Program-made: the position numbers and the translations under genes
Notes under the pieces: generated by a model
Told to the model about the DNA's origin: nothing
Seen by the model: the letters and a program-made list of their open reading frames with translations, nothing else
Databases searched by the model: none
Assembly (NCBI GenBank): GCA_015233565.1
Contig: JADFXM010000039.1
Coordinates: 3,522 to 67,521, forward strand
Direction of reading: 5' to 3'
Origin: Candidatus Rifleibacteriota bacterium
GTDB lineage: Bacteria; Muiribacteriota; Ozemobacteria; Ozemobacterales; Ozemobacteraceae
DNA length: 64,000 bases
Part shown: piece after piece, positions 25,513 through 49,565 of the stretch
How the letters are laid out: every line of letters starts with the position of its first letter
Numbering within the stretch: position 1 is the first letter of the stretch

Positions 25513-25539
25513 CTATCGACAGTTCAGATTCATTTTTTG
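25513..25539 (-). promoter_or_regulatory. Putative sigma28 (FliA/SigD/WhiG)-type promoter
   Basis: (T)CAAAAAAT-N11-GTCGATAG, 34 nt upstream of the start. Confidence 0.55.
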
Positions 25540-25585
25540 ACAATCTTTTCCCTAAATTGGTGCAATTTTGTTTAAAATTTATTCT

Positions 25586-25612
25586 TAAGCTTTTCCCTCC
25601 ATCATCCGATAA
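25586..25612 (+). promoter_or_regulatory. Putative sigma28-type promoter
   Basis: (T)TAAGCTTT-N11-TCCGATAA versus consensus TAAAGTTT-N11-GCCGATAA; 45 nt upstream of the ATG. Confidence 0.65.
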
Positions 25613-25657
25613 AGAACTAGGTATTTTTCTTTTTATCGAATACCAGGAGGCTTAAAA

Positions 25658-26884
25658 ATGAATTCAATTTGTCGCACCGCCGGTGGACTCAAGATAATTC
25701 TCTTTTTAATGGTTCTAATATTGATATTAGGCGGTTGCGAAAAGGGAACCCTTGGTATCAAAGGTGGTTCAGTTTCAGGAATGGTACTGGACAGCCGAAC
25801 TCTTGTGGGTGTTTCAGGAGTTACAGTTACAGCAGAAACTGGAACTGGAGATTCTTTGGTAAACAAAATTGCTTACACAGATACCAATGGAAACTACTTT
25901 GTAAGTGATATGAGACAAGGTGAGTGGACTTTTTCATTTGACAAGGTGGGATACCAGCAAGTCACATCTGATGCTACAAATACAATTAAAGTTGTGGTTG
26001 TGAACAATGAAAACAGGGTAGCACCTCAGGTCAGATTGGTTCAGAACTATATGAATCTGTATATCAACGTCAAGGGAGTATTGAAAGACGCAGTTAATGG
26101 TACAATAATTAACCTGGGACTGGCACAATTTGTTTTTGGAAATCTGGTTTTTGATAATCGTATTCCAAGCGAATTTCAGACAGGTTTTTCTGTACCGGCA
26201 GTAAACGGCGATTTGAACTTGACAATAAAAGTTACCAATTATCAAACATATACAGTGGTCATTCCAAATGCAGTGACAGATCGCGATCTGGGCAATATTT
26301 CCCTCCAACCTATGACATATAGTGTGGTGGGGGTATGGAAGGATGTCCCAGGATGGGTTTTCCAGGAAGCACCGACTGCAAACATTTTCGCTTATGCAAG
26401 CAATAGAGTCGTGGCGACGGCTTCATGTGCAATGAATCAACAATCCTTTAATTTGACAGGAATTCCGATAGGAACGTCAGTAACACTTGATGCACAAATC
26501 AAGGGGTACAAGATGAATGGTTCAATTCCCATTACTCCAAATAGTGACTTTCAGGGAACCATATATCAAAATCTCTCTCTAAAAACCAATTTTGCGCAGA
26601 TTATGCGTGATATAAGACTTGTCGTAAATGGAAACAACATTGCATTGAATCAGAGAATTGGCGGATATTGCAACGAAACGGGTGCGGTATGGCCTCAAAC
26701 AGTTGTTACCGGTGGAATTCTCAATATTCCTCGTGTTGTAGATCTTGGAGTCAACCAAGTTCCAAGTGGATATACTCTCACTTTCACCGGTTTTAATGTT
26801 GATAATGGGACCATAGGCACAAGCCGTGTGATAGTTAATGATGACGGTAGTGATCCACAGATCGTTACTGTCCAGGTTAACTAA
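25658..26884 (+). CDS. Lipoprotein with carboxypeptidase-regulatory-like domains (CEKG paralog 2)
   Basis: Lipobox LGG-C then EKGTLGIKGG; TDTNGNY motif; AGGAGG RBS. Confidence 0.85.
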   Translation: MNSICRTAGGLKIILFLMVLILILGGCEKGTLGIKGGSVSGMVLDSRTLVGVSGVTVTAETGTGDSLVNKIAYTDTNGNYFVSDMRQGEWTFSFDKVGYQQVTSDATNTIKVVVVNNENRVAPQVRLVQNYMNLYINVKGVLKDAVNGTIINLGLAQFVFGNLVFDNRIPSEFQTGFSVPAVNGDLNLTIKVTNYQTYTVVIPNAVTDRDLGNISLQPMTYSVVGVWKDVPGWVFQEAPTANIFAYASNRVVATASCAMNQQSFNLTGIPIGTSVTLDAQIKGYKMNGSIPITPNSDFQGTIYQNLSLKTNFAQIMRDIRLVVNGNNIALNQRIGGYCNETGAVWPQTVVTGGILNIPRVVDLGVNQVPSGYTLTFTGFNVDNGTIGTSRVIVNDDGSDPQIVTVQVN

Positions 26885-26927
26885 ATCAAAAAATTGGATT
26901 TTCAGACCACTTTGAGGAGGTCGTTGT

Positions 26928-28652
26928 ATGAAAGATTATCGTGTTTTGGGAAGTTGGATTCTTGTCATCATGGTATTTTTGGTTTTGATGACTATTGGAT
27001 GCGAAAAAGGTGCATCGGGCTTAAAAACCGGCATTGTAATGGGTAGAATGGTTGATGGAACCAAGCGTGACGTAGGTGTAGCCGGCGCAAGAGTCCAGAT
27101 TGCTTCAGCACAACCTCAATCCTCTGGTGGTGGTGTTCCACTTGGGCAGCAGCTTGTTACTACTACTGACGCAAATGGGAATTTTTACTTTGATGGAGTC
27201 AGAGCAGATGCCATGACATTGTATGCCACTCATGGAAATTATTTTCCATTCTCATATCCAAACTCGAATGCTTCTGCAAGCGGAAACGCAGGTGATTCAG
27301 GCTCAGCTCCCGGAGCTGCTGGCCAGAATATTTGGGTAACCACAAATGCCGTTGTCAATATGGGGGACCTCAGTATGTCGCCAAAGCCTACTACAATTCC
27401 AACTGGCGATATTACTGTAAAACTATATCTTCGTGATGCATTTACCAGAGAATTGATAGATACCGCCAAAAATTTCCCCTCAAAAGCTGTTTATTTAACA
27501 GTTGATAATGTCCAGAAAGTTCCAATGGATCCATCTGATTTAAGAACTACCGGCTTGAGTCTTTCACCGAAAACTGCGACTTACTCAATTTCTATAAACG
27601 TTGACCCGGGATCCGGAAAACCCAGAATGTATCAAGTTTATGACTTTTCCCTCGCTGGCAATCAAAGTTCTGTTACAGATGTTTATTTGCAGCCGTTTAC
27701 CTACCAGATTTCATGCCGCTTTCTCAACTGCCCATCTTATATCACAGGTGGAAATGTAAACGTATTTGCAGAAGTGAATGATCCGAACAACAGTGAGATT
27801 AAGAAAATAATTGCCACTCAAACTGTGGATACAGTTACCATTCAGGGTGAAAATAGGCTGAATCTCCCACTGGTTGTACCACTTCCTGAAGTTCCACTTC
27901 CGGTTTCACTGAGATTTAATGTTTTTGGATATATTGATGAAGTTGTTGATATACCTGTTTCCGCAGGAACTCAAGGCAATGTTAGAGTCGATGTCGATTT
28001 TATGGGAGACAACTCACTTGACCATTACTATTCTTACAACCATCCTGATACTACCAAAAGTGTGAATGGCGTAAAAAAAGTGGCAACCTCATATCCGGGC
28101 TTCAGTCGCATTGTTGAAACCAGAAGTGATTGGAAACCTGATCAAGCTTCTGTAATGCTTTTTGATAATCGATTAATGAGACCGGTTACCGCCTGGTGGG
28201 CTGGCCCGCATTTCTATGGAACAGCGGTTCCCAATGCAGTTCCACCGATCAATGCACCATTGGACAGAGCTTCCGTCCAAGTGTGGGATTTCGTCAAGGG
28301 ATGGAGTTCTGCGGTATATGGTTCCAATTACTCTCTTAACTTTGATTATGCCGGAAATTCTGACCCGACAAATAATTTCCTGATCCCGATTGGATACGAA
28401 TTAAATAGTTGGCTTACTGTTATTCACGGGGCAGGTACTCCAGGTGCGGCTTCAGGGTCTTATACTGTTGGACCCAACAAAGTTACTATTCCACCTGATG
28501 CGGTAGGAATTCCTCTGAGTTATATAGATTATTGGTGGCATGAGACTGTTAATGGAGTGGAGGTCTACAATTGGGATCTCATTAAGAGTGCAAACTTTCC
28601 TAACAGACATGCTCCCGTTTACTTCGTTGCAAAAAACCCCAACTCACAGTAA
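26928..28652 (+). CDS. Lipoprotein with carboxypeptidase-regulatory-like domains (CEKG paralog 3)
   Basis: Lipobox TIG-C then EKGASGLKTG; TTDANGNFYF motif; GAGGAGG RBS. Confidence 0.85.
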   Translation: MKDYRVLGSWILVIMVFLVLMTIGCEKGASGLKTGIVMGRMVDGTKRDVGVAGARVQIASAQPQSSGGGVPLGQQLVTTTDANGNFYFDGVRADAMTLYATHGNYFPFSYPNSNASASGNAGDSGSAPGAAGQNIWVTTNAVVNMGDLSMSPKPTTIPTGDITVKLYLRDAFTRELIDTAKNFPSKAVYLTVDNVQKVPMDPSDLRTTGLSLSPKTATYSISINVDPGSGKPRMYQVYDFSLAGNQSSVTDVYLQPFTYQISCRFLNCPSYITGGNVNVFAEVNDPNNSEIKKIIATQTVDTVTIQGENRLNLPLVVPLPEVPLPVSLRFNVFGYIDEVVDIPVSAGTQGNVRVDVDFMGDNSLDHYYSYNHPDTTKSVNGVKKVATSYPGFSRIVETRSDWKPDQASVMLFDNRLMRPVTAWWAGPHFYGTAVPNAVPPINAPLDRASVQVWDFVKGWSSAVYGSNYSLNFDYAGNSDPTNNFLIPIGYELNSWLTVIHGAGTPGAASGSYTVGPNKVTIPPDAVGIPLSYIDYWWHETVNGVEVYNWDLIKSANFPNRHAPVYFVAKNPNSQ

Positions 28653-28671
28653 TAAACAAACGATTTAAATC

Positions 28672-28702
28672 AACCGCCGCTTACATGTTGAGCGGCGGTT
28701 TT
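28672..28702. terminator. Terminator hairpin between convergent genes
   Basis: aaccgccgct ... agcggcggtt followed by Ts. Confidence 0.8.
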
Positions 28703-28713
28703 AATTTGGCAGG

Positions 28714-30225
28714 TTAATTTTTTTCCATGATTTTGGATGCTGATAGGGCTCGTTCGCTGGCCCAACCTTTGATAAACTTAATTTGTTCAGCCATTGTTCG
28801 TGAAAGAGGCACTGTAATTCTTATGATCGAGTAGAGATCATCTAAATTCATCTTTCGTTTGAAATTGAAAGCTTCTATCATTGCTGCTTCGATGGCATGT
28901 TCGATTTCCGCGCCGTTCCAGAACTCTGTGGCAACACTTAGCATCGTAAGATCAAAATCTGCGGGGTCATTATTCCTTTTACTCAAATGTACTTTCAGAA
29001 TCTCTTCCCGTTCCTGATCGTTTGGAAGATCAAGGAAGAAGACTTGATCGAAACGCCCTTTTCGAATAATTTCGGCAGGGAGGAGATCTATTCTGTTTGC
29101 GGTTGCAGCAACGAAAACATCCGCTTTCTTTTCCTGCATCCAGGTCAAAAAAGCTGAAAAAATGTGCGACCCCGTGGAACCGTCTTTAGCAGTCGAAGAG
29201 CTGATTCCGCCCTCGATTTCGTCTATCCACAAAATAGCCGGCGCAACAGCTTCAATAGTCTGTATCGCTCTTTGGAAAGTAGATTCAGGAGTGCCATAGA
29301 GGCCTGAATAGACCTGATTCATATCCAGCCTGAAAAGAGGTAGATTCCAAAGTGAACTGATTGCTTTTACGGACAGAGATTTTCCGCAGCCGGAAATTCC
29401 CATCATTAGAAGGCCCTTGGGTGGAGTAAGACCAATCGCGGCTGCTTCGGGAGAAAAAAGCTGTTTCCTTTTCGTTAGCCAATTTTTCAACCCGGCAAGG
29501 CCACCTACGTCATTAATCGTAAAATCGGTCTTTACGAATTCAAGAATTCCCTCTTTTCTAGTTAATTGTTCCTTTTCGGAGTAAAACAAGTTCAATACCG
29601 AACTATCTATTTTTGCACGATTCCACAAAATCTTGTTTAAGACGGAATTTATTTCATTGCCTGTAAAACCCTGAAGGGCAGTTATTATGTTGGACATATC
29701 CTCAGGGGTCAGCTTATTTTCACATGTTCTTTTCGCCAGATTGGCGAAATGTTTTTCGACTATTTCCTTGATTTCAATAGAGTCAGGTAAGCCGAAGAGT
29801 ATTAAATAGATGTCTTTTCGCAATTCGGATGGGATCGTTATTTCCGACCCGGACAGGAACAAAAATCGTCTGGTACCACGAAACGAAGATGCTATGTTCT
29901 TGATGCGCCGTTTCACTTCAGTGTTCGCGAGGAAAGGTCCCATGTCCTTGAAAAGATAAAACCCTTCATCAGTCAGGGAATAAATTTTATCCAAGGCCGC
30001 CTCCGGATCACCAGGAGGCCCGATGACCTGGTCGTCAACCGTCAGCCCGATATGCGAGTCCCAGCGGATAATTTGCTTATCACATTGAAAAACTGCTCGG
30101 GAAAGAGAAACAATTGACGAATCGACCTTTTCTTCTTCCCAGGAGTCAATCGCAATTACTGGGTACCCTGAAACTAAAGCCATTCTGAGATTTGAAATTG
30201 CACTATCATGCTGGGATTTTGACAT
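28714..30225 (-). CDS. Ycf46-like AAA+ ATPase
   Basis: DVGGLAGLKNWL; Walker A GISGCGKS; Walker B WIDE; SRH TANRIDLLPAEIIRKGRFD; degenerate N-terminal module. Confidence 0.88.
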   Translation of the reverse strand: MSKSQHDSAISNLRMALVSGYPVIAIDSWEEEKVDSSIVSLSRAVFQCDKQIIRWDSHIGLTVDDQVIGPPGDPEAALDKIYSLTDEGFYLFKDMGPFLANTEVKRRIKNIASSFRGTRRFLFLSGSEITIPSELRKDIYLILFGLPDSIEIKEIVEKHFANLAKRTCENKLTPEDMSNIITALQGFTGNEINSVLNKILWNRAKIDSSVLNLFYSEKEQLTRKEGILEFVKTDFTINDVGGLAGLKNWLTKRKQLFSPEAAAIGLTPPKGLLMMGISGCGKSLSVKAISSLWNLPLFRLDMNQVYSGLYGTPESTFQRAIQTIEAVAPAILWIDEIEGGISSSTAKDGSTGSHIFSAFLTWMQEKKADVFVAATANRIDLLPAEIIRKGRFDQVFFLDLPNDQEREEILKVHLSKRNNDPADFDLTMLSVATEFWNGAEIEHAIEAAMIEAFNFKRKMNLDDLYSIIRITVPLSRTMAEQIKFIKGWASERALSASKIMEKN

Positions 30226-30588
30226 TCTGATTCCTTCTTATTCTTTCTTTTGAACCTGTTGCACAATTAATAAAAACCATTAATTTGCAAATTTTTGGTG
30301 TATAGTACTCAAATATCATATTTCAAAAGGTTTTTCATTGTCAAAGAAATTATTGAGAAATTGTTGAGATAACGCTAATGAATATTTCACTGTGCAACGA
30401 ATCAAGAATAGAATTTCGTATTTGGATAAGATGAATTTTTCTTTTTATTGCAGGACAAACTCGTCAAACTGGTCGAAATAACCATAAATACAACTAACTT
30501 GAAGGGGAACTGTAGGGTTTTCAGAAATCTGGCTTAAAATCAATCGAAAATTAATGTGGGACTTTTATCTATGAGTAGGAGGTAAGAC

Positions 30589-32454
30589 ATGAAAAAGCAA
30601 TGTGTTAGTCCACTGTTAAAAACAATTTTGACTATAACTGTCTTGTTTTCTTTGCTGAACTTAACTCTTGAAGGTGCAAACTCAACGGATGGTTCAGAAA
30701 AGCTCCCCAATTATCATTTAAGAGAGCTTGATGCCCGTGAAATTGCTGACTTCATCAATCAGGTAATCACTGATCAGGAAAAGCAATTACAAGAGTTGAA
30801 GAATAAATATCCGAATAAATCCAAGCAAATTGAAGAAAATCCTGAGATGATAGCTTATGCTCGAATCCTCCGATTAGCTTCTGAATTGGCTGACAATGTT
30901 GGCAAAGGCAATTGCGGGCCTGAACAGAAAGAGAAATTTGTGAATCTTCAGAGATTGCATTACGGTGCTCTGACGGAGTTAGGATCTGCCTCTTCCCCAA
31001 TTTCAGGGGTGAGAGAGATTCTCGGCATGAAAGTGGTAAAGGTTCCACGCCCCAAAGTATTGGATACCCCCATCGGAATCGGAGCTGCACAGTTGGAATC
31101 AGATAACCTGATAGATCCAAAAACCGGGAAAAGAGTTTCTTTGGAAGAATTAGCAAAAATGAATCATCTGGGAATTTCCAGGTTAGAACCGTCATCCGAA
31201 AACCACTGGATTTATGGAAAGCCTGCAAATGGGAGATTTCCTGCATTTGTTCAGGAAAATTTCGATTTGATTCGATCATTAGGTGGAAAGTTGGGGAGGT
31301 TCGATCTGGGTTTTGCAAAGAAGGTTTTGTTCTACGATGGTTTGAATGCTGACGATACCGCTCCAAAAATTACTACCCTTGATAGATATGGGAACAAATG
31401 GAAAGTAAAATGGGGTGATGAAACCCATTCAAATATAATCGCCACCAGGCTTTACATTGAGGTAGGAGGAAGTTTCACCGATCTGAAATTTCATTCGGGC
31501 CCAGGTGAAACGATAATAATTCTTACCTCCCCGGATTCAAAGGATAGTTCCGAACCTAAAACCGTAGCTGATCTGGAAGAACTTCTGTTAAAATCCAAAT
31601 TTAAGTTTCGTCTTGCCCCTTATTACATTGACCCAAAGGATATGCTGAAAAATGCTCAGGGAAAGCTCCTTGGGAATGGGTTGATCGACAAGGAAATGGC
31701 CAAGCGGGAATCCATTCCCGAAAAATATGTAGGAGCTTACTTTTTCAAAGTAAAGGAAGCTCAATTAACATTGTACAACCCCGCGTTCAAGCAACTCGGG
31801 GGAGCTGCACTCAGCACAGTTGGAGCCGAAAAGAACCGTTTCACCCGTAGTTCCATGATATTCAATTGTTGGATAAAAAACTGGGATGTTAAGGACGGCA
31901 ATACTCATACCGGGTTGTTGTATAATTCGGTGACTGAGCAATTTGACCGACAAACAGAATACTTTAGTGACCTTGGAATTGCCATGGGGACTTTAATCTT
32001 GGGCGGGGTAGTCAACGCAATTGAGCCCTCCTTTGTTAAACTGCTCCCGGGGTCAATTAACTTCAATTTTCGGACGATGTTCTATCCTAAATCATGGAAA
32101 CTGTGCACCTATGCTGATGCGCGTTGGATGGCACTCAAAATCGCATCTTTAAAAAGGGGTGATTTTGAGCAAATTGTTGCGGAAAGTGGATGGCCGGTTT
32201 TCGTCCAAAAAGTTGTCGTTGAGAAGCTTATTTCAAGGCGAAACGAACTGGCAAAAGCGTTCAATCTTGAGCTGGACGGAATTTCAATTATTCTTTGCGA
32301 TCCAAATTTGACAATTACTGCAAATTACAAAGGAACTCAGGATTCGCCGATAATTAATGGGAAGATCAACTCAAATTCTCAAATGGTTAAAGATCTGGAA
32401 GCTGATTGCCATCCGGAAGGCCTGGCCAAAGTTATAAATCGTTTCCAGGGTTAA
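30589..32454 (+). CDS. Exported hypothetical protein with protein-kinase-like motifs
   Basis: Signal peptide; WKVK...E...ATRL, NWDVKDGN and SDLG in kinase order; AGGAGG RBS. Confidence 0.7.
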   Translation: MKKQCVSPLLKTILTITVLFSLLNLTLEGANSTDGSEKLPNYHLRELDAREIADFINQVITDQEKQLQELKNKYPNKSKQIEENPEMIAYARILRLASELADNVGKGNCGPEQKEKFVNLQRLHYGALTELGSASSPISGVREILGMKVVKVPRPKVLDTPIGIGAAQLESDNLIDPKTGKRVSLEELAKMNHLGISRLEPSSENHWIYGKPANGRFPAFVQENFDLIRSLGGKLGRFDLGFAKKVLFYDGLNADDTAPKITTLDRYGNKWKVKWGDETHSNIIATRLYIEVGGSFTDLKFHSGPGETIIILTSPDSKDSSEPKTVADLEELLLKSKFKFRLAPYYIDPKDMLKNAQGKLLGNGLIDKEMAKRESIPEKYVGAYFFKVKEAQLTLYNPAFKQLGGAALSTVGAEKNRFTRSSMIFNCWIKNWDVKDGNTHTGLLYNSVTEQFDRQTEYFSDLGIAMGTLILGGVVNAIEPSFVKLLPGSINFNFRTMFYPKSWKLCTYADARWMALKIASLKRGDFEQIVAESGWPVFVQKVVVEKLISRRNELAKAFNLELDGISIILCDPNLTITANYKGTQDSPIINGKINSNSQMVKDLEADCHPEGLAKVINRFQG

Positions 32455-38895: not shown

Positions 38896-38922
38896 TTGTC
38901 GGACTTCACAAACATATTATTA
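38896..38922 (-). promoter_or_regulatory. Possible sigma28-type promoter
   Basis: (C)TAATAATA-N11-TCCGACAA, 29 nt upstream of yggS. Confidence 0.4.
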
Positions 38923-38946: not shown

Positions 38947-40695
38947 TCAATTGTTCGGAAGCGTTCTGATTCTTAAGAGGTTAACGGAAACTGGAACAAA
39001 AGGCAAGTGGTCAACGGCAGTGGGCTTCCAATCTACCTTGATCCCATCTTTTCCTGCGTTATCAAACCACCGCTGCAGATTTCCCTCGATGCAAGCACCT
39101 ACAATCTTCAGAGAAACCTTTTCACCTTTCCCTTCAGATGCTGGGTTCAAGGATTGGCCCTGGGAAAGTTGGTGGGCCCATGAACCATACCAGCCAGCCC
39201 CCGGTCTGTATAAAACCGCATTTATTATCCATTGGGTTGCAGCCTGGATGGTTTCAAGAGGAGGTTTTTGCTCCTCTATATATTTTTCCAGATCTTTTGT
39301 TGAAATTCCAATCCCATTGCCAGCTATCATCAACAGGTTAAATCCACTCTCAGAGTTTACTGATCCGGTCAAAAGAATATGTCGAGGAGTGCACAGAACC
39401 ATGTCTCCTCCAATTTCGCATCGAATGAAAACGGAATTTTCGGAAAAAACCACGGAAACACCTTTCAAAACTTCTGCAGCCAAATTGTTCTTCCCATCAA
39501 AACGATTTGCTGTAGCGAGTGTGACGAATCCGCCACTGATTTCATCCTGGCGCCATTCTGATTCGTTCGAAGTAAGATAGGATTCGGAGAAAATCTGCTG
39601 ATTTTCGAAGTGGTAATCCATATCCAGTTTTTCGCCTCTTAAATAAGGTCGTCCCTGAGGGTCAATATAGAGTCCGTCTTTTTTTGCTTTCTGGCGGATG
39701 GATTCATAGTCCGGCTTCCAGGTTGTCAAAAAAGCGGTTTTGGGAGTTGAATCAGCATCTACAAATGGTCCTTCGGGAAGTTCCGCTTCAAGATTATCAA
39801 GAATCTTTTGAATTCTGCGACTGGAAGGAATAGCCAAAACAGAATTTGCAACTTTCAAACTAGGGCGGCTTGTTCCGCGCCGGTATAAATAAGATGCAGT
39901 TTGGATAGGTCCAAAGAATTGATGATTGTCTATTACAATAGGAGTTTGACAATAAAGAGGGCCATTGCAAGGAGAAGGCCCTTCTCTTGAGAAAAACATA
40001 GTTCCGTAGTTTCCCTTGAACTTATCTTTCCCGGTGGGTGGATTGAATGGGTCGGGTTCACCGGTTTTGAATAATTTAATTAAAAAGTCCGGATCGTAAC
40101 ATACCCCGAAATTGTTCAGTATCCCGCTTTGAAACAGGGAAAAATTGCTTTTCCGGAAATTTTCGAGGTTTCCAAATTCTTGAATCCAAGGAAGGAGTGG
40201 CTTGCCGTAATAATATTCGTTAAGACTGTTGAAAACGGCGAATCTTTTTACAATCGGAATTATTCCAATTGTGCCCCAAACGCGATAATTCGAGCTTCCA
40301 CTTCTTCCTTCGCTTTCAATTCTGTAAAGGCTGCTTTCGTCTATTAATGGGGTAGCAGGATTGTCTACGCCCGGGAGAGGTCTTACTTCAAGAATTCTGC
40401 AACCTGAGTCTGAGAATAACCCGATTGGCCGCCATCTTGGGGACATCAGGTCTTCCACCACCGGAAGACGAGTTCCTCCCTCTTTCGCAATTTCTTGTCT
40501 TATTCGGGTGATCCCAATGTGAACCCCTGCCTGTCCTGCAAGCATGGCCTGTATTTCCGAAATTTGTCTGGTTGCCAGTTCACTGTCAAGAAAATAGACC
40601 CGCAAAGCGAGCACGACGCACAAGAAGAAGAAAAAAAGGATCATCATCGTTAAAGGAAAATGCGGTTTTCGGGCAAGAAATACAATTTTGTTCAT
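38947..40695 (-). CDS. Large PilX/GspK-like minor pilin-type protein
   Basis: N-terminal hydrophobic helix; QAMLAGQAGVHIGI and YRIESEGRSG PilX-like signatures; third gene of a prepilin-like trio. Confidence 0.55.
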   Translation of the reverse strand: MNKIVFLARKPHFPLTMMILFFFFLCVVLALRVYFLDSELATRQISEIQAMLAGQAGVHIGITRIRQEIAKEGGTRLPVVEDLMSPRWRPIGLFSDSGCRILEVRPLPGVDNPATPLIDESSLYRIESEGRSGSSNYRVWGTIGIIPIVKRFAVFNSLNEYYYGKPLLPWIQEFGNLENFRKSNFSLFQSGILNNFGVCYDPDFLIKLFKTGEPDPFNPPTGKDKFKGNYGTMFFSREGPSPCNGPLYCQTPIVIDNHQFFGPIQTASYLYRRGTSRPSLKVANSVLAIPSSRRIQKILDNLEAELPEGPFVDADSTPKTAFLTTWKPDYESIRQKAKKDGLYIDPQGRPYLRGEKLDMDYHFENQQIFSESYLTSNESEWRQDEISGGFVTLATANRFDGKNNLAAEVLKGVSVVFSENSVFIRCEIGGDMVLCTPRHILLTGSVNSESGFNLLMIAGNGIGISTKDLEKYIEEQKPPLETIQAATQWIINAVLYRPGAGWYGSWAHQLSQGQSLNPASEGKGEKVSLKIVGACIEGNLQRWFDNAGKDGIKVDWKPTAVDHLPFVPVSVNLLRIRTLPNN

Positions 40696-41225
40696 TGGTT
40701 GTACAGGTAAACACTTTTCTCGAAAAACATTGTTTCGTCCGGATCATCGGGCGCGCTAACGTTAAGTTTGATTTTCAAAAGTCTGGGAGAATGTCGTTCG
40801 AATTTTACAGTGGAAACTCCACTTAAAATGGGGTTGGGAAGACCTTTGAATGACTTTAACTGGTTGCTTCCTGAAGCGGTTTTCACAATATAAAAGAGGG
40901 AATTTTCAGTAAAAATGAACCCTCGGCTTTCTGCCGCTGGGGCGAGGTTCCAATCAGCCATAGCCGGTTTAAATATACATTGCTTGCTTTCCCCCTGGAA
41001 AGGAAATTCTATTTCGGCTGCATTTTGAATCTCAAGAGCTATGTTGTTCAGGGTTCTTTTAACGTCATATGACCATTTCGAGCGCGTTTGAGCTATTCTC
41101 ATATCCCTGGAAGAAAGAAAAAACATAAAACAAGCTGCACCAGCCGCCAGAGAAAGGAAAAGAACCGCCAGAAACATGTCGGTTAAAAGGTAACCCTTTC
41201 TCAAATTATTGAAGTAATCGCTCAT
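40692..41225 (-). CDS. Prepilin-like protein (PilW/GspJ-like)
   Basis: Class III-like signal RKG|YLLTDMFLAVLFL; IALEIQNA helix. Confidence 0.6.
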   Translation of the reverse strand: MSDYFNNLRKGYLLTDMFLAVLFLSLAAGAACFMFFLSSRDMRIAQTRSKWSYDVKRTLNNIALEIQNAAEIEFPFQGESKQCIFKPAMADWNLAPAAESRGFIFTENSLFYIVKTASGSNQLKSFKGLPNPILSGVSTVKFERHSPRLLKIKLNVSAPDDPDETMFFEKSVYLYNQ

Positions 41226-41254
41226 TATGCACTACCAATTTTCCATTGTCATTA

Positions 41255-41665
41255 TTACGGCCTTGTTTGAGAAACCATTGCTTCAAGCACAACTTGCTTT
41301 CTGAAAAAAAGCATTCCCCATTGAACTTGAGCACGAACAACAGTAATATCAGGAAGATTCGGATGAGGAAAAGCTTCCACCTTCCCTTCAAAAGGAGTAT
41401 CTCCCGGAAAAGAAATCGGATGAAACTCCGTCTTGGGCATTATTTCAATGAATGGTTTTGAAAGAGCTTCGGATAAGAGATTCTCCACCGCCATGGCAGC
41501 CTGTCTGTGTGAATCCGAAAAAAAAAGTGGGACATCATGCACAGACCAGAGTTGGATAAACGGTAACAGGAAAAAAGTCAGAGATCCAAAGGCCAGCACT
41601 GTTCTTAATGCACTGTTACCGTTTCGACTAAGTTTCTTAAGGATTAAGTGCCGCATATTCTTCAA
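41255..41665 (-). CDS. Prepilin-like protein (PilV/GspI-like)
   Basis: RNG|NSALRTVLAFGSL; QAAMAVENLLSE; C-terminal VVRAQVQW. Confidence 0.5.
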   Translation of the reverse strand: MKNMRHLILKKLSRNGNSALRTVLAFGSLTFFLLPFIQLWSVHDVPLFFSDSHRQAAMAVENLLSEALSKPFIEIMPKTEFHPISFPGDTPFEGKVEAFPHPNLPDITVVRAQVQWGMLFFRKQVVLEAMVSQTRP

Positions 41666-42704
41666 GTTCCCTTATATATCTCTCTGCCATAGCAATTTTT
41701 TCTTCTTCCTGAGTTGCCAGTGTATATTTTTTCCAGGTTCCGATTGCATCCCGATGCTGCCCCAACCTCTCATAAATTATTGCAAGGTTGTATAGGGCTT
41801 TGTCCATAAACGGATCTTGTTTCAAAGCAGATTTATAAGCATCAATTGCTTCGTCATAACGCCTTTCCATGTCAAACAAACAGGCCAAATTATAGAGGGC
41901 TTGCGTGTTTTTGGGATACAGAGATCTAATTTCCTGATACGCTTTTATGGCATCTTCAGTATCATTTTCCTTAAAAATTTCATAAGCTGCATTCAATTTT
42001 TGAGAAAGAAGGCTGGGAACCACAGGAATACTCTTTTGGGGAGCACGAACCCGCGTATCTGCCACTCCATTTCCCGTTCTGAAAAGAGAAAAGTAATGAT
42101 TTACCTTCTTTACATAGTTCATTGTTTCACGGATTCTGGGAACTCCTCGGGCTTGTTCGACTCTTCCTGGGCCTGAGTTGTATGCTGCGAGGGCGAAATC
42201 AAGGTCCCAATTAAATTTTTCGAGCATCATTCGAAGATATCTTGTTCCTCCGAGAATGTTCTCCTTGGGATCAAATGAGTTGTAACATTGAACAAGTTTT
42301 GCTGTGGAGGGAATTAACTGCATTAATCCCTGGGCATTCTTTGAGGAGACAATTCCCGGGTCAAAATCCGATTCAACTTTGATCACTGCTTTGATTAAGT
42401 ATGGATCCACAGAGTATGTCCTGGCAGCTTCATTAATGATTTCACTATAAGTTTCATCATTTGGAAGGAGGATTTTCTGCGGCGTTACGGAATTTATACA
42501 CTGCGTGCCTGGAGGCCCATCGGGATCAGCTCTGTCTTTTCGGGAAGTTACAACTATCTGATATTTTTTATTGGGCGGATTGTCAGTCAAAAACAATCTC
42601 CCTTGCTCATCGCGATAGGAGTAAATGGCTCCCTCCAGAAATGAAAGAGGTAATACCAGAAAAAACACCCCGGCAAGCAAAATATTCTTAACCTTGATAT
42701 TCAA
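41637..42704 (-). CDS. Soluble lytic transglycosylase with DUF4124-like N-terminus and C-terminal TPRs
   Basis: IYSYRDEQGRLFLTDNP; AVIKVESDF (catalytic Glu), GLMQL, AAYNSG and ETMNYV; TPRs with ALYNLA; GGAGG RBS favours TTG at 42704. Confidence 0.9.
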   Translation of the reverse strand: MNIKVKNILLAGVFFLVLPLSFLEGAIYSYRDEQGRLFLTDNPPNKKYQIVVTSRKDRADPDGPPGTQCINSVTPQKILLPNDETYSEIINEAARTYSVDPYLIKAVIKVESDFDPGIVSSKNAQGLMQLIPSTAKLVQCYNSFDPKENILGGTRYLRMMLEKFNWDLDFALAAYNSGPGRVEQARGVPRIRETMNYVKKVNHYFSLFRTGNGVADTRVRAPQKSIPVVPSLLSQKLNAAYEIFKENDTEDAIKAYQEIRSLYPKNTQALYNLACLFDMERRYDEAIDAYKSALKQDPFMDKALYNLAIIYERLGQHRDAIGTWKKYTLATQEEEKIAMAERYIRELEEYAALNP

Positions 42705-42742
42705 TGCTTCCCTCCAAATTGGTTGAACCAAGTCAACCCGTG

Positions 42743-42769
42743 CTATCGACGAAAAGCTTTATTTCCTTA
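42743..42769 (-). promoter_or_regulatory. Putative sigma28-type promoter
   Basis: (T)TAAGGAAA-N11-GTCGATAG, 38 nt upstream of the start. Confidence 0.6.
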
Positions 42770-42832
42770 ATAAAAATTATATATTTATTTTATTTTAACA
42801 CCTGTTTTCAAAAATTTCCTGTTTTTAAAATC

Positions 42833-42861
42833 TTGATAGAGATTACTGAGAAAGGTATAAT
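42833..42861 (+). promoter_or_regulatory. sigma70-type promoter
   Basis: TTGATA-N17-TATAAT, ending 14 nt before ATG 42876. Confidence 0.7.
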
Positions 42862-42875
42862 CTAAAATTTAGTTT

Positions 42876-43565
42876 ATGGAAATTAAAACAAATAAAGTTT
42901 ACTCAGCGATTATTGCATTTTTTGCTCTGGCAATGCTTCTTTTCGGGGGATTTTATTTTTCCGGACGCCAGAAGAATAATGAATTCTGCCGCTTGGTGGA
43001 TGAAGGGGCTTCATTTTTCCAAAATGAAAAACTTGACCAGGCAATAGATTCCTTTGGAAAGGCAGTTTCACTAAATACCAGTTCCCGACGCTTTTTCGTA
43101 TCTATTCAAAAAATGTTTGGGAAGAAATACCCGGACCCGAAAGAAGTTGTACTTATGCGCAGCGAAGTATTTCTTTCCAAGGCTTATGATGAGCTTTTCC
43201 TTTTGAAACCTGCAGAAAGTTATCTTGAAAAAGCAAAAAATGGAATCTACAATATCAATACTCCTGAAGCAGAGGAATTGAAAAATAGCCTTATTACAGC
43301 CTTAGGCGTTTCACGTCTTTGTCAAACTATAGTAAAACGGAATTTTCAAAAAGTCCTCAAAGACCTTCTTGAAGTTGAAAAAAAAGCCTCAGCTACTGAC
43401 AAGGATTTTTTCATCATGGAGATAAGGCTCCTTATAATTTGTGGAAAATCCTTGAAAAACCAGGAACTTCTTCAGCAAGCACGCGAGCTTCTTTGGATAA
43501 TCACTTCAAAATCATCCACCCGCGATCGAAGGACCGATACCCTCTGGACTCTCCTTAGTAGATGA
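42876..43565 (+). CDS. Membrane-anchored TPR-like hypothetical protein
   Basis: N-terminal TM helix; EGASFFQNEKLDQAIDSFGKAVSLN TPR-like repeat. Confidence 0.7.
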   Translation: MEIKTNKVYSAIIAFFALAMLLFGGFYFSGRQKNNEFCRLVDEGASFFQNEKLDQAIDSFGKAVSLNTSSRRFFVSIQKMFGKKYPDPKEVVLMRSEVFLSKAYDELFLLKPAESYLEKAKNGIYNINTPEAEELKNSLITALGVSRLCQTIVKRNFQKVLKDLLEVEKKASATDKDFFIMEIRLLIICGKSLKNQELLQQARELLWIITSKSSTRDRRTDTLWTLLSR

Positions 43566-44386: not shown

Positions 44387-44739
44387 CGCTGATTGTTCTG
44401 GTAACCCTTTTCACTCTCTTGAATGGTCTGATAGTTAAAGATCCAGAGCCATTTAAGACTTACTTTAATTCTCAGAATGGGCTTTCTGAAAAAAAAAATA
44501 GTGAAAGTCGGGAGCCCCAGGACAATTCAAATTTAAATTCCGTCTCCCCGGAAAGACTCATTCAAGCTTCAAACTTTAATTCTCATTTGGTGCATTTAAT
44601 AGTCTTAGAAAGAAGTATCCGCTCTTTTTCGGATTGGGATGAGCTGAAAAGGCGTATCCCAGAAATAAAAGACTCAGATATCAGTTCTTTAAAACTTTCG
44701 GGAATCACTATAATCTCGAAAGTTGCATCATCTCAATAA
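44347..44739 (+). CDS. ComEA-like membrane-anchored helix-hairpin-helix protein (degenerate)
   Basis: TM helix, polar linker, then LNSVSPERL...IVLERSIRSFSDWDELKRRIPEI; directly before comEC. Confidence 0.6.
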   Translation: MPLGEKFDFKGFLTLIVLVTLFTLLNGLIVKDPEPFKTYFNSQNGLSEKKNSESREPQDNSNLNSVSPERLIQASNFNSHLVHLIVLERSIRSFSDWDELKRRIPEIKDSDISSLKLSGITIISKVASSQ

Positions 44740-44798
44740 AGAAGAGTAAATGTGTTATTTAATGATTTCAGTAATGCCAAGAATCAGCGGTTCACTAA

Positions 44799-47009
44799 AT
44801 GACTCGGTCTAAAACAAGTGAGCCATCTACCTCTCCGACTTCGAGAGAGCCTAATATTGCAGTTTTCACGGTTCTTTTCATTATTGGGGTAGTGTTCTCG
44901 AAGGATTTTTCGCCAAATTTTAATTTTTTTCTTCTTTCCTTGATTTTTGTTTTTAGTATTGCAGGATATTTTTTTGGAAAAAGGAAGTCCTGGGAAGCCT
45001 CAAAAATTTTTTTGTTCTCTGCCGCTGTTTTTGTGGGCATGTACACAGGAATTCAAGGAACTCCTCCGGCGCCCCCGAGTGACATCCTGAATAGCTTGGC
45101 GGACACGGATGGTGAAATATCCGGAGTTTTCAATCGTGATTTCAGCAAATCCGGAAAAGAAGGATTTTCGTTTCTTCTTAACGACGTGGACCTGACAAGC
45201 GGGGGGAAAGATTTCCGACTTCCTTTTTTGGTCAGACTCAAAGTTTCAAACCCTGAGTTTTTTCCTGAACCAGGAGTCAGGTATTCAGCAAGTGGAACAT
45301 TCAAAGTTGAAAAACGTCGTCTAGCAATGGTCTGCAAAAATTATCGAATTGTTCCGCAGGAAATTCTTTTGTCGCTTTCAGGAACCACAAGGGAATGGAT
45401 TAAAGATGGCTTCAAGAGTATGTTATCGCCAAGGCATCACGCATTGCTCTCGGGCTTTCTCATCGGGGATACATCGAAATTAAGCTACTCCGACCGTGAA
45501 CTATTTAGGAAGACTGGAATCACGCACCTTTTGGCTGTTTCCGGACAACAGGTTATGTCGCTGGCTTTTCTTTTAGCTGCTATTCTAAGTTGGACAGGCA
45601 TTCCTCCTCTTTCCCGTGGCTTTGTCATCTCAGGTTTTCTGTTTTTTTTCGGACTTATGACCGGAGGACAATCTTCAGTCTGGCGTGCTTTGATAATGTA
45701 TGTTGCCGGCTTCATAATATGGAACCTCGAAAGTGAGCCTAATCCAATGGTTCCACTTTCAATTTCCGCATTAGTCCTTCTTCTTTACCAACCCACATTA
45801 ATTTACGACTTAGGATTCCAACTAAGTTTTCTGGCAGTCTTAGGAATAATATTTGTTCGTGAACCCATAGAAAAAATGCTTGCCCGTTTCGGGATTCCTC
45901 TGCTTCTGGCTCGATATATTGCAGTGTCAACGGGTGCAAACATTGCAACCATTCCAATTTCGGCGTGGCATTTTCAATATATTTCATTTTCCTCCTTCAT
46001 AATAAATCCACTTGTGGTTTGGCTATTTTCAGTTGTTCTTCCAATGGGACTTGCGGTTTCAATAGTCGGGCATTTTTGGTTTAACGGGGGATTGATAATT
46101 GCTGCAGCGCTTTCTTTAATAATTGATTCCATGATGACTATGGTTGAGTTCGTTTCACGTTTTCCTTTTGCAATTCTCACGATTTCAAATTTTCATCCCC
46201 TGATTCTGGTGGGAATCTATGCATTGATTTTATTTACCATCGATTATTTCACCTCCGTCCCAGGGGAAATTTCGACTTCTGGTCCTTCTTCTGTTCATAC
46301 TTCAATTCCGGCTGCCTCACAAGCCTTAACCCAAGCTGGAACTCCAGCTTTCAAAAAAAATAAAGAATCTGGAAAATCCTACCTGCTCATTGAAAAAGAA
46401 GAGCCCCAAGTTAAGAGGAAAGTAAGCGCAGTTAATCGAAAAATGCGATTCTTTGATTCGGATTTACTTAATATTCTCGAAGTTCTACTTTCCCAACTTC
46501 CTAAAAGGTCTCTTAAATCGAAAGGGAACATTGAGTTGTTAAATTTTCCCGTATCAAAATTGAGTGTTGATGGGCAAACTTTCTTTCATAGACTGGACGA
46601 TCTTACCGCCGAAATACTTACGCGGGAGCCTCAAAGAATTATTCAGGCCCAGCTATTTTGCCTTGCGCTCTTTTGCATGGAATTCGCATTTGATAATACT
46701 TTTACTGCATACTGCAAATCTTTTTGTTCACGACAAAACGAAGCTTTGGGAAAAGAAAAACGGGACCGGGCATTATTGATTTGCATGGCTTTTGAAGCTT
46801 TTCCCCGCCCAATTTCAGAAGAAACTGAGGGGAACAATATTCCCAAATACCCGCTGGCAAGAGAAATTTTCCAGGATGGCTTAGAGCTCCTTGGGAGTCA
46901 AATTTTTCAGAAATCGACTTCAAAAGATGATTACTTATCGATGATAAAAGACCATATGGATTACCGAAAAAGAGTGTTAAACCAGATACGGGGACAATTT
47001 GCAAAGTGA
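44799..47009 (+). CDS. comEC: ComEC/Rec2 competence channel protein with an atypical C-terminal domain
   Basis: FRKTGITHLLAVSGQ, SVWRALIM, DLGFQLSFLA and HFQYIS...INP motifs. Confidence 0.9.
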   Translation: MTRSKTSEPSTSPTSREPNIAVFTVLFIIGVVFSKDFSPNFNFFLLSLIFVFSIAGYFFGKRKSWEASKIFLFSAAVFVGMYTGIQGTPPAPPSDILNSLADTDGEISGVFNRDFSKSGKEGFSFLLNDVDLTSGGKDFRLPFLVRLKVSNPEFFPEPGVRYSASGTFKVEKRRLAMVCKNYRIVPQEILLSLSGTTREWIKDGFKSMLSPRHHALLSGFLIGDTSKLSYSDRELFRKTGITHLLAVSGQQVMSLAFLLAAILSWTGIPPLSRGFVISGFLFFFGLMTGGQSSVWRALIMYVAGFIIWNLESEPNPMVPLSISALVLLLYQPTLIYDLGFQLSFLAVLGIIFVREPIEKMLARFGIPLLLARYIAVSTGANIATIPISAWHFQYISFSSFIINPLVVWLFSVVLPMGLAVSIVGHFWFNGGLIIAAALSLIIDSMMTMVEFVSRFPFAILTISNFHPLILVGIYALILFTIDYFTSVPGEISTSGPSSVHTSIPAASQALTQAGTPAFKKNKESGKSYLLIEKEEPQVKRKVSAVNRKMRFFDSDLLNILEVLLSQLPKRSLKSKGNIELLNFPVSKLSVDGQTFFHRLDDLTAEILTREPQRIIQAQLFCLALFCMEFAFDNTFTAYCKSFCSRQNEALGKEKRDRALLICMAFEAFPRPISEETEGNNIPKYPLAREIFQDGLELLGSQIFQKSTSKDDYLSMIKDHMDYRKRVLNQIRGQFAK

Positions 47010-47308
47010 CATTCCGGCCCAATGAACGGGGCAAACGCCTATTTTTGTTGATCTGAGGCGGTTAATCCAATCAAAGTGGATTTATAAATCATATTTTTCT
47101 GTCAATATTTTCATCAAAAAATGGGCGCTTTATACGAAATATCCGGTAAAGCCGCATCAACAGAAAACCTCATGAAAGATTGATTAGCAGCGAAAAAAGT
47201 TATGGCTGCCCTGGCCCTCTGAAAAAATCTTTCGGGAAAATTTGCATTTTGTCGAATATGAATTTATACTTGCACAACTTTTCTCGAGTATTCCCAAGTG
47301 AGGTTGAC

Positions 47309-47587
47309 ATGTCCGAAATCATTTCCCAATCAAGTTCTTCGGTCGACAAACCATTTCTTCCTTCACCACCTGCAGCCAAAAGTCAGGGATCAGAAGTCCC
47401 AGTAGAAAAAACAGAGAAACAAGAGCTTTCTGACCTGGTATTGAAATTCGAAGCTCAAAACAGAAGTTGTTGGCTTTGCACAAAAATTGCCGGAGTGTTT
47501 AAATCAGGTAAAGAATTATCAGAAGATGACAAATGGCATCTTTCAACTTGTGTTAAAGCTTGGGAAAATGTCCATAAAATGCAATAA
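47309..47587 (+). CDS. Small hypothetical protein with a possible Zn site
   Basis: GAGG RBS; CWLC...HLSTC. Confidence 0.55.
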   Translation: MSEIISQSSSSVDKPFLPSPPAAKSQGSEVPVEKTEKQELSDLVLKFEAQNRSCWLCTKIAGVFKSGKELSEDDKWHLSTCVKAWENVHKMQ

Positions 47588-47812
47588 TGAGCCTGTTGTA
47601 TAATTAATAAAAATCATTAATTATGCAAAATTGAGATTAAGAAAGTGCTTTTTAATGTTGATCTCATGTTTTGGACTTTCGCGAATTTTGGAATTGTGCA
47701 ACAAGCTTTAATCTGCTAGAAACACTCGGTTTGAACCTGTCGATCTAATCATAGTAAGTTTGTCAATGCACTTTGTTGACAAAATTATTTGTTTTTTAAG
47801 GAAGGATCAAGA

Positions 47813-48004
47813 ATGGATAGGAGAGTCATAAAAATTGAATCGTTAAAAGAGCATCAAGATGATCCTTTTGTGCCAGGAACTGTTGAAGAACGTCTGGCGC
47901 TTGTGTGGCCTTTGACTTTGGAATTGGTTTCGATAGGAGGAAAACTCAATGTTGAACGAAGATTACAAAGAGATGTTGTCCGCATTGGTCGAAGAAAAAG
48001 TTGA
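47813..48004 (+). CDS. Small hypothetical protein, partner of the nucleotidyltransferase
   Basis: AGGA RBS; TVEERLALVWPL...RLQRDVVR; overlaps the next gene. Confidence 0.6.
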   Translation: MDRRVIKIESLKEHQDDPFVPGTVEERLALVWPLTLELVSIGGKLNVERRLQRDVVRIGRRKS

Positions 48005-48404
48005 ATTTCTTCTTATAGGGGCATATGCGCTGGCCGTTTTTGGCGTCCCACGGGCTACTGTTGATCTTGATTTATTCGTCAAACCTTCTCCGGAAAATGC
48101 TGCCAAACTGATGCAAGCTCTTGCTCGATTTGGGGCTCCAATGGATCAAATAAATGTTAAAGATTTCGAACATGATGATACGATTTTTCAGATAGGTGTC
48201 GCGCCGCGTCGAATAGATATTTTGACTGGAATAACTGCCTTGAATTTTGATGAAGCGAGTAAAAATGCAATAGATGCGACTATTGAGGGAATTCAACTTA
48301 AGGTTATTTCGATTCAGAACATGATAAAAAACAAAACCGCAATTGGTCGAACGAAAGACTTGGCTGACACGGAAATCCTAAAAAAAATTGCTACCCCATC
48401 GTAA
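47949..48404 (+). CDS. Minimal nucleotidyltransferase (DUF6036/AbiEii-like)
   Basis: LIGAYALAVFGVPRATVDLDL, RIDIL and NKTAIGRTKDLAD motifs; AGGAGG RBS. Confidence 0.8.
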   Translation: MLNEDYKEMLSALVEEKVEFLLIGAYALAVFGVPRATVDLDLFVKPSPENAAKLMQALARFGAPMDQINVKDFEHDDTIFQIGVAPRRIDILTGITALNFDEASKNAIDATIEGIQLKVISIQNMIKNKTAIGRTKDLADTEILKKIATPS

Positions 48405-48475
48405 CCGAGACGAGCTAACATCTTTCATTCTCTCGAAAATAACCAGTTATCGCCCTTCGGTCAGACTTTTATAAA

Positions 48476-48520
48476 CCCTCACCCTAACCCTCACCCACGG
48501 CAACCGCCGGGTAGAGGGAG
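48476..48520 (+). repeat. BoxC-like palindromic repeat
   Basis: ccctcaccctaaccctcaccc...gggtagaggg hairpin. Confidence 0.55.
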
Positions 48521-48638
48521 AAAGCAAGAACTGCGGCCCTTGGGGAACCGCATAAAAAAATGAAAAATCCTATGCCATTAAATTAGAGTTCACTTAACAC
48601 AATGATCTCTAGCGGAGAAAATTTCTACAAAAAATTAC

Positions 48639-48667
48639 TTGACTTGGATGGAGGTCTTTGATATCAT
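48639..48667 (+). promoter_or_regulatory. sigma70 promoter of the tRNA operon
   Basis: TTGACT-N17-TATCAT with a TG extension. Confidence 0.75.
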
Positions 48668-48698
48668 ATGTGAACTGCACCGCTGTTTCGGAGTGCGC

Positions 48699-48772
48699 CG
48701 GGGCGTGGCGCAGTTGGTTAGCGCGCTTGCCTTGGGCGCAAGAGGTCGCTGGTTCGAGTCCAGTCGCCCCGA
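48699..48772 (+). tRNA. tRNA-Pro(TGG)
   Basis: Acceptor cggggcg/cgccccg; anticodon arm cttgc-ctTGGgc-gcaag; GGTTCGAGTCC. Confidence 0.97.
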
Positions 48773-48787
48773 CCGAAGAATTGATTT

Positions 48788-48860
48788 GCGGGAGTAGCTC
48801 AGTTGGTAGAGCGCCACCTTGCCAAGGTGGATGTCGCGGGTCCAAGTCCCGTCTCCCGCT
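48788..48860 (+). tRNA. tRNA-Gly(GCC)
   Basis: Acceptor gcgggag/ctcccgc; anticodon arm ccacc-ttGCCaa-ggtgg; T-loop variant TCCAAGT. Confidence 0.92.
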
Positions 48861-48884
48861 CTGATGTGAGGCTTAAAGGCTTCT

Positions 48885-48958
48885 GCGCCTGTAGCTCAGT
48901 TGGATAGAGCAACAGCCTTCTAAGCTGTGGGCCAGAGGTTCGAGTCCTCTCAGGCGCG
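48885..48958 (+). tRNA. tRNA-Arg(TCT)
   Basis: Acceptor gcgcctg/caggcgc; anticodon arm acagc-ctTCTaa-gctgt. Confidence 0.97.
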
Positions 48959-48973
48959 TTCAGTTAGGTTCGT

Positions 48974-49046
48974 GGTGGGAGTAGCACAATGGCAGTGCGC
49001 TAGACTGTGGATCTAGTCGTTGCGGGTTCGAGTCCCGTCTTCCACC
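48974..49046 (+). tRNA. tRNA-His(GTG)
   Basis: G-1 and C73; acceptor gtgggag/cttccac; anticodon arm ctaga-ctGTGga-tctag. Confidence 0.95.
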
Positions 49047-49061
49047 CAGCAGGAGTTTTAT

Positions 49062-49135
49062 GCGCCTGTAGCTCAATTGGATAGAGCAACGGACTTCGGA
49101 TCCGTAGGCTGAGGGTTCGAATCCTTCCAGGCGCG
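49062..49135 (+). tRNA. tRNA-Arg(TCG)
   Basis: Acceptor gcgcctg/caggcgc; anticodon arm acgga-ctTCGga-tccgt. Confidence 0.96.
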
Positions 49136-49141
49136 AGTTGA

Positions 49142-49213
49142 GGGGCGTTAGCTCAGCGGTAGAGCATCTGCCTTTTAAGCAGAGGGCCGTTGGTTCAACT
49201 CCAACACGCCTCA
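49142..49213 (+). tRNA. tRNA-Lys(TTT)
   Basis: Acceptor ggggcgt/acgcctc; anticodon arm tctgc-ctTTTaa-gcaga. Confidence 0.95.
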
Positions 49214-49231
49214 GTTTCCCTCTTTTTCTTC

Positions 49232-49304
49232 GGACCGTTAGCTCAAGTGGTAGAGCAACTGACTCTTAATCAGTAGGTTGCAGGTTCGAGTCCCGCACGG
49301 TCCA
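49232..49304 (+). tRNA. tRNA-Lys(CTT)
   Basis: Acceptor ggaccgt/acggtcc; anticodon arm actga-ctCTTaa-tcagt. Confidence 0.96.
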
Positions 49305-49538
49305 TTTCTAGTTCGTTTTTCACCTTTTCTTCTTTGCAACTCCAAAAATTTTTAAATCTGTTGGTCATTATTTTTATTTTCAGATTTCCCAACCTCGGGG
49401 ATTTAAATTTGATACCATTTATTCGATTAATGAACCACCAAGTTGCTTTGGAAGGCATCTTCTGATTTATTTTTGTGAATGTTGGTCTCAGAAATAATCC
49501 AGTCGAAAAGTATTCCAAAAGTCTGTTAAACTCTTGCT

Positions 49539-49565
49539 TAATAACCGCCTTGATTTTGCCGATTA
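49539..49565 (+). promoter_or_regulatory. Putative sigma28-type promoter of the giant ORF
   Basis: (T)TAATAACC-N11-GCCGATTA, 36 nt upstream of ATG 49602. Confidence 0.6.

Follow-up and report, generated by a model that had tools for sequence, protein, structure and literature searches.

The 64,000-nucleotide (nt) stretch of Candidatus Rifleibacteriota DNA considered here (the window; positions 3522-67521 of contig C118 in G000, an assembly of 8.3 Mb in 185 contigs that is 94.75% complete) carries four bipartite elements resembling promoters of the sigma-28 class, each directed toward a gene or operon for predicted envelope proteins. A preliminary description of this DNA had listed five such sites and assigned them to a non-flagellar regulon for surface machinery. 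All five strings were found at the places and on the strands given there. Four of the sites are above chance and one is not, and the four are probably promoters at which RNA polymerase acts with FliA, the flagellar sigma factor.

Two of the elements lie back to back between divergent genes. On the minus strand, CAAAAAAT-N11-GTCGATAG (25513..25539) precedes a gene for a lipoprotein-like protein of 441 amino acids (aa) (24165..25490, minus strand) with a CarboxypepD_reg-type beta-sandwich (Pfam PF13620, E value 3e-06). On the plus strand, TAAGCTTT-N11-TCCGATAA (25586..25612) precedes a lipoprotein operon (25658..28652, plus strand; genes 25658-26884 and 26928-28652) encoding two tandem proteins of 408 and 574 aa that Pfam classifies as CarboxypepD_reg/SpaA-like beta-sandwiches. 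The genes at 24165-25490 and 25658-26884 are paralogues, and their divergent arrangement is kept across the family. In its Atlas model the 408-aa protein aligns with SpaA/MSCRAMM-type beta-sandwich (pilin-like) chains at a template-modelling (TM) score of 0.65. The third element, TAAGGAAA-N11-GTCGATAG (42743..42769, minus strand), precedes an operon (38947..42731, minus strand) that begins with an SLT-TPR transglycosylase (41637-42704 or 42731; Pfam SLT, E value 1e-28) followed by three small or unknown proteins; its position beside yggS is kept in relatives. The fourth, TAATAACC-N11-GCCGATTA (49539..49565, plus strand), precedes the gene of a giant immunoglobulin (Ig)-like surface protein (49593..64000, plus strand), an open frame of more than 4800 aa with weak Big_13 and Big_3_2 matches that runs past the end of the window and reaches 4976 aa in the full contig by our own gene calling.

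The distance from the end of the -10 box to the start codon had been put at 29-45 nt for all five sites. This is right for the site at 25586 (45 nt), for that at 42769 (38 nt, counted to a TTG at 42704 that follows GGAGG) and for the yggS site at 38922 (29 nt). It is 22 nt for the site at 25539 and at least 27 nt for that at 49539. The name transglycosylase-prepilin operon, also proposed earlier, is borne out in its first half. The three further proteins (136, 177 and 582 aa) have hydrophobic N-termini but gave neither a Pfam match nor an N_methyl match, and since only one of them has a pilin-like GYLLTD, the prepilin assignment is not established.

The promoters of the neighbouring genes differ. 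As had been proposed, the comEC arm has a sigma-70-type promoter, TTGATA-17-TATAAT (42833..42861, plus strand; 11/12 consensus matches), which stands back to back with the sigma-28-type element ahead of the transglycosylase genes. On the own strand of the genes behind the sigma-28-type elements no sigma-70-like site was seen except for one 9/12 match at 25516-25544; the transglycosylase operon and the giant gene have none. A small nucleotidyltransferase gene of the DUF2204/AbiEii type lies between comEC and the giant gene (47949-48404, plus strand) and may be one partner of a toxin-antitoxin pair. A sigma-28-like match of lower score, GATAAAAGTC-11-TTCGATTG (30537-30569, minus strand; score 10.7), 311 nt upstream of an AAA-ATPase gene (28714-30225), was left uncounted.

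The enterobacterial class 3 flagellar promoters follow the consensus TAAAGTTT-N11-GCCGATAA. An enterobacterial-type consensus of this kind is cited as the FliA site in PMC3627812. Promoters of the sigma-28 class have a TAAA-like -35 box and a GCCGATAA-like -10 box some 15-16 nt apart. Judged by the matrix scores given below, the match to the FliA/SigD/WhiG consensus that had been claimed for all five sites holds for four.

One rival explanation is that intergenic DNA, being AT-rich, matches a loose pattern by accident and that none of the five sites is more than this. The loose pattern of the preliminary description occurs 17 times in the window. Dinucleotide shuffles give 9.09 ± 3.16 matches, and 17 is attained in 2 of 100. 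Since this is weak evidence, chance was judged on the whole genome. A naive upstream count there gave 74 sense and 75 antisense matches, as the chance explanation would have it. This count, however, took divergent intergenic regions both ways, and it was replaced by three classes: coding DNA, DNA facing a gene start and DNA facing a gene end. A scan of hexamer orientation likewise failed to expose the motif (CCGATA, 172 sense versus 152 antisense); TATAAT was separately enriched (609 sense versus 378 antisense).

The picture changes when spacing is taken into account. Within 150 nt of a gene start and facing it, TAA-N17-CCGAT occurs 22 times and TAA-N18-CCGAT 24 times in the genome. At 11 other spacings these words give 3-14 such cases (around 10), and where they face gene ends the number is 4-7. 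Genome-wide, the loose pattern thus gains specificity only if spacing is imposed together with orientation. With a G ahead of the CCGAT core the counts are 9 and 11 at the right spacings and 1-7 elsewhere, and the GTCGATA variant is enriched as well (4, 4 and 6 versus 0-2). Neither CAA paired with CCGAT nor the CCGAC core of the yggS site shows a spacing peak genome-wide (for the latter, 3, 4 and 3 versus 1-6).

A two-block matrix was seeded on TAA-N16/17-G[CT]CGAT, trained on half of the contigs and used to score the other half (two-fold cross-validation); it took the place of a first matrix trained on its own top matches. In agreement with the expectation that a matrix scan would find this promoter class enriched upstream of genes, 59 of the sites scoring at least 13 are directed at gene starts and 18 at gene ends, with 353 in coding DNA. 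The corresponding counts are 52 and 16 at a score of at least 13.5, and 43 and 10 at a score of at least 14. The excess of start-facing sites comes to about 41 at a score of at least 13 and to about 79 at a score of at least 10. The four window sites score 13.7 (25539), 14.5 (25586), 13.5 (42769) and 14.0 (49539). Spread over 24 kilobases, they also form the densest cluster in the genome: among the 52 start-facing sites scoring at least 13.5, four fall within 25 kilobases here and at most two elsewhere, and about 0.03 clusters of that density are expected by chance.

Orthologous loci were collected from relatives, the genome's own locus being excluded, and the sense strand from -150 to -5 was scanned, by default for the layout of the preliminary description with a tolerance of one nt in spacing. 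In 145-nt windows of the same loci this layout turns up by chance in 108 of 3580 (3%). Upstream of the lipoprotein gene at 25658 (plus strand) it is present in 18 of 18 relatives. For its paralogue at 25490 (minus strand) the count is 13/18, rising to 17/18 with a relaxed layout and to 18/18 for the -10 box G[CT]CGAT[ATG] alone, and for the transglycosylase gene at 42731 (minus strand) it is 10/17. Homologues and paralogues of the giant protein carry the layout in 2/6 cases, a relaxed form in 5/6 and CGATA in 6/6. A search with the lipoprotein as query against the genome_contigs set found no relative. Upstream of the lipoprotein gene, spacers and flanks are wholly different between genera, GC-rich relatives included, while TAA(A/T)TTTT and GCCGAT(A/T) stay in register. 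Such a pattern marks the two boxes as being under selection.

The same words emerge when shared 5-mers are counted without bias. GCCGA/CCGAT or CGATA is at or near the top in the sets for the lipoprotein, its paralogue, the giant protein, flgM and pilM (the last two are discussed below), and in the lipoprotein set GCCGA and CCGAT are, after the ribosome-binding site, the most widely shared of all (16/18). For the transglycosylase set TCGAT ranks only tenth (8/17). The expectation of conservation in orthologues therefore held for both lipoprotein arms, the transglycosylase operon and the giant-protein homologues, and orthologue conservation refutes chance for these four sites. Together with the spacing-specific enrichment, the cross-validated scores and the clustering, this makes it barely credible that all five sites are accidental.

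For the fifth site the chance explanation does hold. The element proposed for yggS, TAATAATA-N11-TCCGACAA (38896..38922, minus strand), gives background scores (-0.8 and 2.5) and has the CCGAC core that lacks a spacing peak. The motif is found upstream of yggS (38866, minus strand) in 0 of 23 relatives, and in this set the motif words are not near the top of the shared 5-mers. Several yggS relatives carry TGnTAnnAT-like -10 boxes instead, by our own reading of their upstream sequences. The site was rejected as a chance match, and yggS is dropped from the targets.

Which sigma factor reads the four elements? Profile searches find a single FliA/WhiG-family sigma factor in the genome, on contig C136, in line with what the preliminary description had anticipated. 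With the FliA_WhiG model it reaches 285.9 bits (cut-off 189.6) and with the WhiG equivalog 355.7 bits (cut-off 343), and its gene adjoins CheD-like and CheC-like genes. Its nearest matches in named public records (86-92% identity) bear the names Candidatus Riflebacteria, Ozemobacteraceae or Ozemobacter sibiricus. The four next-best sigma matches in the genome are RpoD/RpoS-like. The genome also encodes FlhA (880 bits), FliD and FlgM, and has eight flagellin-N matches. In a sample of the family and phylum that counts this genome, FliA is present in 40 of 41 genomes and FlhA in 39 of 41. The lineage is thus flagellated, and the term non-flagellar fits some of the target genes at most.

The motif is found ahead of flagellar genes as well. 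Upstream of fliD stands CTTAAGAAGA-11-GTCGATAATTAA (the -10 box is also given as GTCGATAA), with a score of 19.3. A CheR-histidine kinase-receiver gene on a flagellin contig has a site scoring 21.3. The flgM gene has its own FliA-type promoter, GTCGATGT (score 13.6), which 20 of 22 relatives from the family retain in the form CTAAA(C/T)GAAC-N11-TCCGATAT. The GTCGAT variant of the -10 box is common to fliD, flgM and the window sites at 25539 and 42769. Two flagellin genes have TAAC-N17-[AT]CCGATAA, with cross-validated scores of only 6.9-8.2.

Some features of these flagellar loci stand apart from the promoter question. The flgM leaders (L241-L263) have a long conserved 5' untranslated region with complementary arms, GGAGGCGTCCCCCGC ... 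GGGGGAGACG, between promoter and start codon, which may form an RNA structure controlling translation. A hairpin, GTCGGCAAA-(A)GGA-TTTGCCGAT, with CAAGGAGGA behind it at the ribosome-binding site, is common to the leaders of three C95 flagellin genes (100925, 103733 and 106687; L012-L014); this looks like CsrA/FliW-type translational control. The flagellin genes on C95, C130 and C143 (L010-L015, L017) are of unusual length, their open frames spanning 744-1022 aa.

The distribution of the motif bears on the regulon as first proposed, in which a dedicated sigma factor without ties to flagella would serve adhesion, pilus and wall genes alone. In its favour, many of the top targets are non-flagellar, most flagellin genes lack a strong site, and sites scoring at least 9 are absent from the 250 nt upstream of all 15 chemoreceptor genes. 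Chemoreceptor genes without the motif are unusual for a FliA regulon. However, the only FliA/WhiG-family sigma factor is the one encoded beside the chemotaxis-type genes, the motif precedes fliD and flgM, its GTCGAT variant included, and FlhA and FliA occur in nearly all relatives searched. A separate regulon of this kind is very improbable, and the label non-flagellar was abandoned. A flagellum-independent arrangement of this type does exist in Chlamydia, where sigma-28 serves non-flagellar, stage-specific genes and the flagellum is absent. The present lineage differs by having FlhA and FliA, both in this genome and in nearly all sampled relatives.

The predicted target set extends well beyond the window. 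Pfam was run on the 65 non-window genes with cross-validated sites scoring at least 12.5; the four genes of the window bring the number of targets to 69. Large repeat and Ig-type proteins are represented by a giant with ALTTAQ repeats, two Big_13 giants (1805 and 4270 aa), and Big_9/PKD, Big_5, fn3 and triple CarboxypepD_reg proteins. Wall and envelope functions include a LysM-M23 protein, a TPR-polysaccharide deacetylase, PBP1, a LysM protein, Omp85 and signal peptidase II. There are also pilM and a secretin for pilus assembly and secretion, and two regulators, the RpoD/RpoS-like sigma factor on C149 and a GGDEF protein. About 20 of the remaining targets are of housekeeping type and about 20 have no family, consistent with roughly a quarter of false positives.

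Adhesin-type Pfam domains of the Ig/beta-sandwich kind (E value of at most 1e-5) are found in 9 of the 69 targets; in a control of 40 random genes that have an upstream gap the count is 0 (one-sided p = 0.013). Long proteins are over-represented too: 32% of the 28 targets scoring at least 15 reach 800 aa, compared with 8.8% of 4240 background genes (p = 0.0005). The earlier proposal that an alternative sigma factor co-activates dispersed surface machinery was right in kind, its non-flagellar label apart.

Upstream of pilM a CGATA -10 box is kept in 19 of 22 relatives, the full layout in 12/22 and a relaxed one in 17/22. At these loci (L264-L286) G[TC]CGATA is directly followed in most relatives by a conserved AAACTGAC, with ACTGA in 19/22. 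Another pilus-type gene came up in the random control: a T2SSG/N_methyl pilin-like gene (C97:173165-173835) has the site TTTAATTTTT-11-GCCGATGA, which scored 17.8 in the self-trained matrix.

The C149 sigma gene (C149:9169-10109; L002/L034; 289 aa) has one of the best sigma-28-type promoters, TATAAAGTTT-N11-GCCGATAT, which suggests a FliA-driven sigma cascade. The same gene raises the question whether the bipartite element might be bound not by FliA but by a transcription factor or by one of the RpoD/RpoS-like sigma factors (C149, C113 or C127). That C149 carries the motif itself would allow for such a cascade, and FliA, like every promoter here, is assigned from sequence. Yet the element fits the sigma-28 layout, both in the consensus and in the form mapped in Bdellovibrio (TTAAG-N16-CCGATA; PMC3627812). 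It is asymmetric, spacing-constrained and gene-directed, and lies 22-130 nt before start codons. RpoD-like sigma factors are expected on boxes of the TTGACA/TATAAT type, the latter of which is enriched separately. Another binder is therefore considered quite unlikely.

We put the probability at roughly 80% that the four sites are promoters read by polymerase with FliA, that the regulon joins late flagellar genes to conserved envelope genes, and that the yggS site is a chance match. Besides the sequence-based nature of the assignments, several points weigh against this interpretation. The relatives are kin, so that their fractions do not count as independent trials, and the conservation of the giant-protein site comes from only six homologues and paralogues with the strict layout in two. 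By the start-versus-end counts about one quarter of the sites scoring 13.5-14.5, the range of the window sites, are expected to be false. The assembly has an estimated contamination of 8.49%, and the 6180 genes stem from our own crude calling. Peptidoglycan-related genes are not significantly enriched (5/69 targets versus 1/40 random genes, p = 0.28), nor did a crude signal-peptide measure show an enrichment among targets. Finally, the three flagellins scored match weakly (cross-validated scores of 4.4-8.2), and no chemoreceptor gene has a site that reaches a score of 9.

The FliA regulon would then have a flagellar part, comprising fliD, flgM, the CheR-kinase gene and, weakly, some flagellins, and an envelope part, comprising the two divergent SpaA-like lipoproteins, the lytic transglycosylase operon, giant Ig-like proteins, the LysM-M23 peptidase, PBP1 and the pilM pilus-assembly operon. 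In the FliA/FlgM checkpoint, FlgM keeps FliA inactive until the hook-basal body exports FlgM. From this checkpoint we infer the timing, as we infer from the sites the action of FliA and the start positions: the surface genes would be transcribed once FlgM is exported after completion of the hook-basal body, and so would be active in motile cells at the same time as fliD and flgM.

Such an arrangement looks like an enlarged FliA regulon of the kind described for Bacillus SigD or Bdellovibrio FliA. The layout and the -10 core are those of the enterobacterial class 3 promoters; flgM and fliD are targets in both cases and the anti-sigma factor FlgM is present here. Unlike in the enterobacteria, the second -10 position also tolerates T (GTCGAT), the -35 box is sometimes CAA, and the target set is much broader. 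To our knowledge, giant Ig-like adhesins and pilM are not part of the Bacillus SigD regulon. Bacillus subtilis SigD also controls cell-wall hydrolases, the vegetative autolysins (PMC3865298, PMC5200910), and wall enzymes are likewise among the predicted targets here (LysM-M23, SLT transglycosylase, polysaccharide deacetylase and PBP1). In contrast, chemoreceptors and flagellin, core SigD targets in Bacillus, are here the genes with missing or weak sites.

The closest likeness is to Bdellovibrio bacteriovorus. Karunker et al. (2013, PMC3627812) report TTAAG-N16-CCGATA in 92 of the 140 attack-phase promoters that they mapped by experiment and propose FliA as a global regulator whose reach includes cell-surface proteins. 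The motif is near-identical to (T)TAA(G/A)-N16/17-G(C/T)CGAT(A) here. In both organisms FliA is proposed to serve surface proteins, many uncharacterised genes and flagellar genes, and the promoters of other regulators carry the motif. The 92 promoters of Bdellovibrio were mapped, whereas the excess of about 40-80 sites here is smaller and is a sequence-based estimate. Bdellovibrio also has a two-phase cycle and none is known for this lineage, whose nearest FliA records are not from Bdellovibrionota.

In a full-text search of one literature library, 74 papers mention Riflebacteria or Ozemobacter and none has both Riflebacteria and FliA. The finding adds an independent lineage to the cases in which a flagellar sigma factor controls envelope and adhesion functions, and gives a conserved, testable regulon to a candidate phylum that has been seen in metagenomes alone. 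It points to surface proteins that are likely made in the motile state, in a lineage where adhesin-like genes carry the motif while chemoreceptor genes do not. It is conceivable, though doubtful at present, that the Riflebacteria/Ozemobacteraceae family has co-opted the FliA/FlgM checkpoint as the master switch of a motile "seek-and-attach" cell type. If so, that cell would combine type IV pilus machinery with giant Ig-like adhesins, SpaA-like lipoproteins and enzymes that cut peptidoglycan, as a convergent counterpart of the Bdellovibrio attack phase. An "attack" life stage is speculation. Such a switch would be a hint that a phylum without a cultured member leads a biphasic life, possibly as epibionts or predators.

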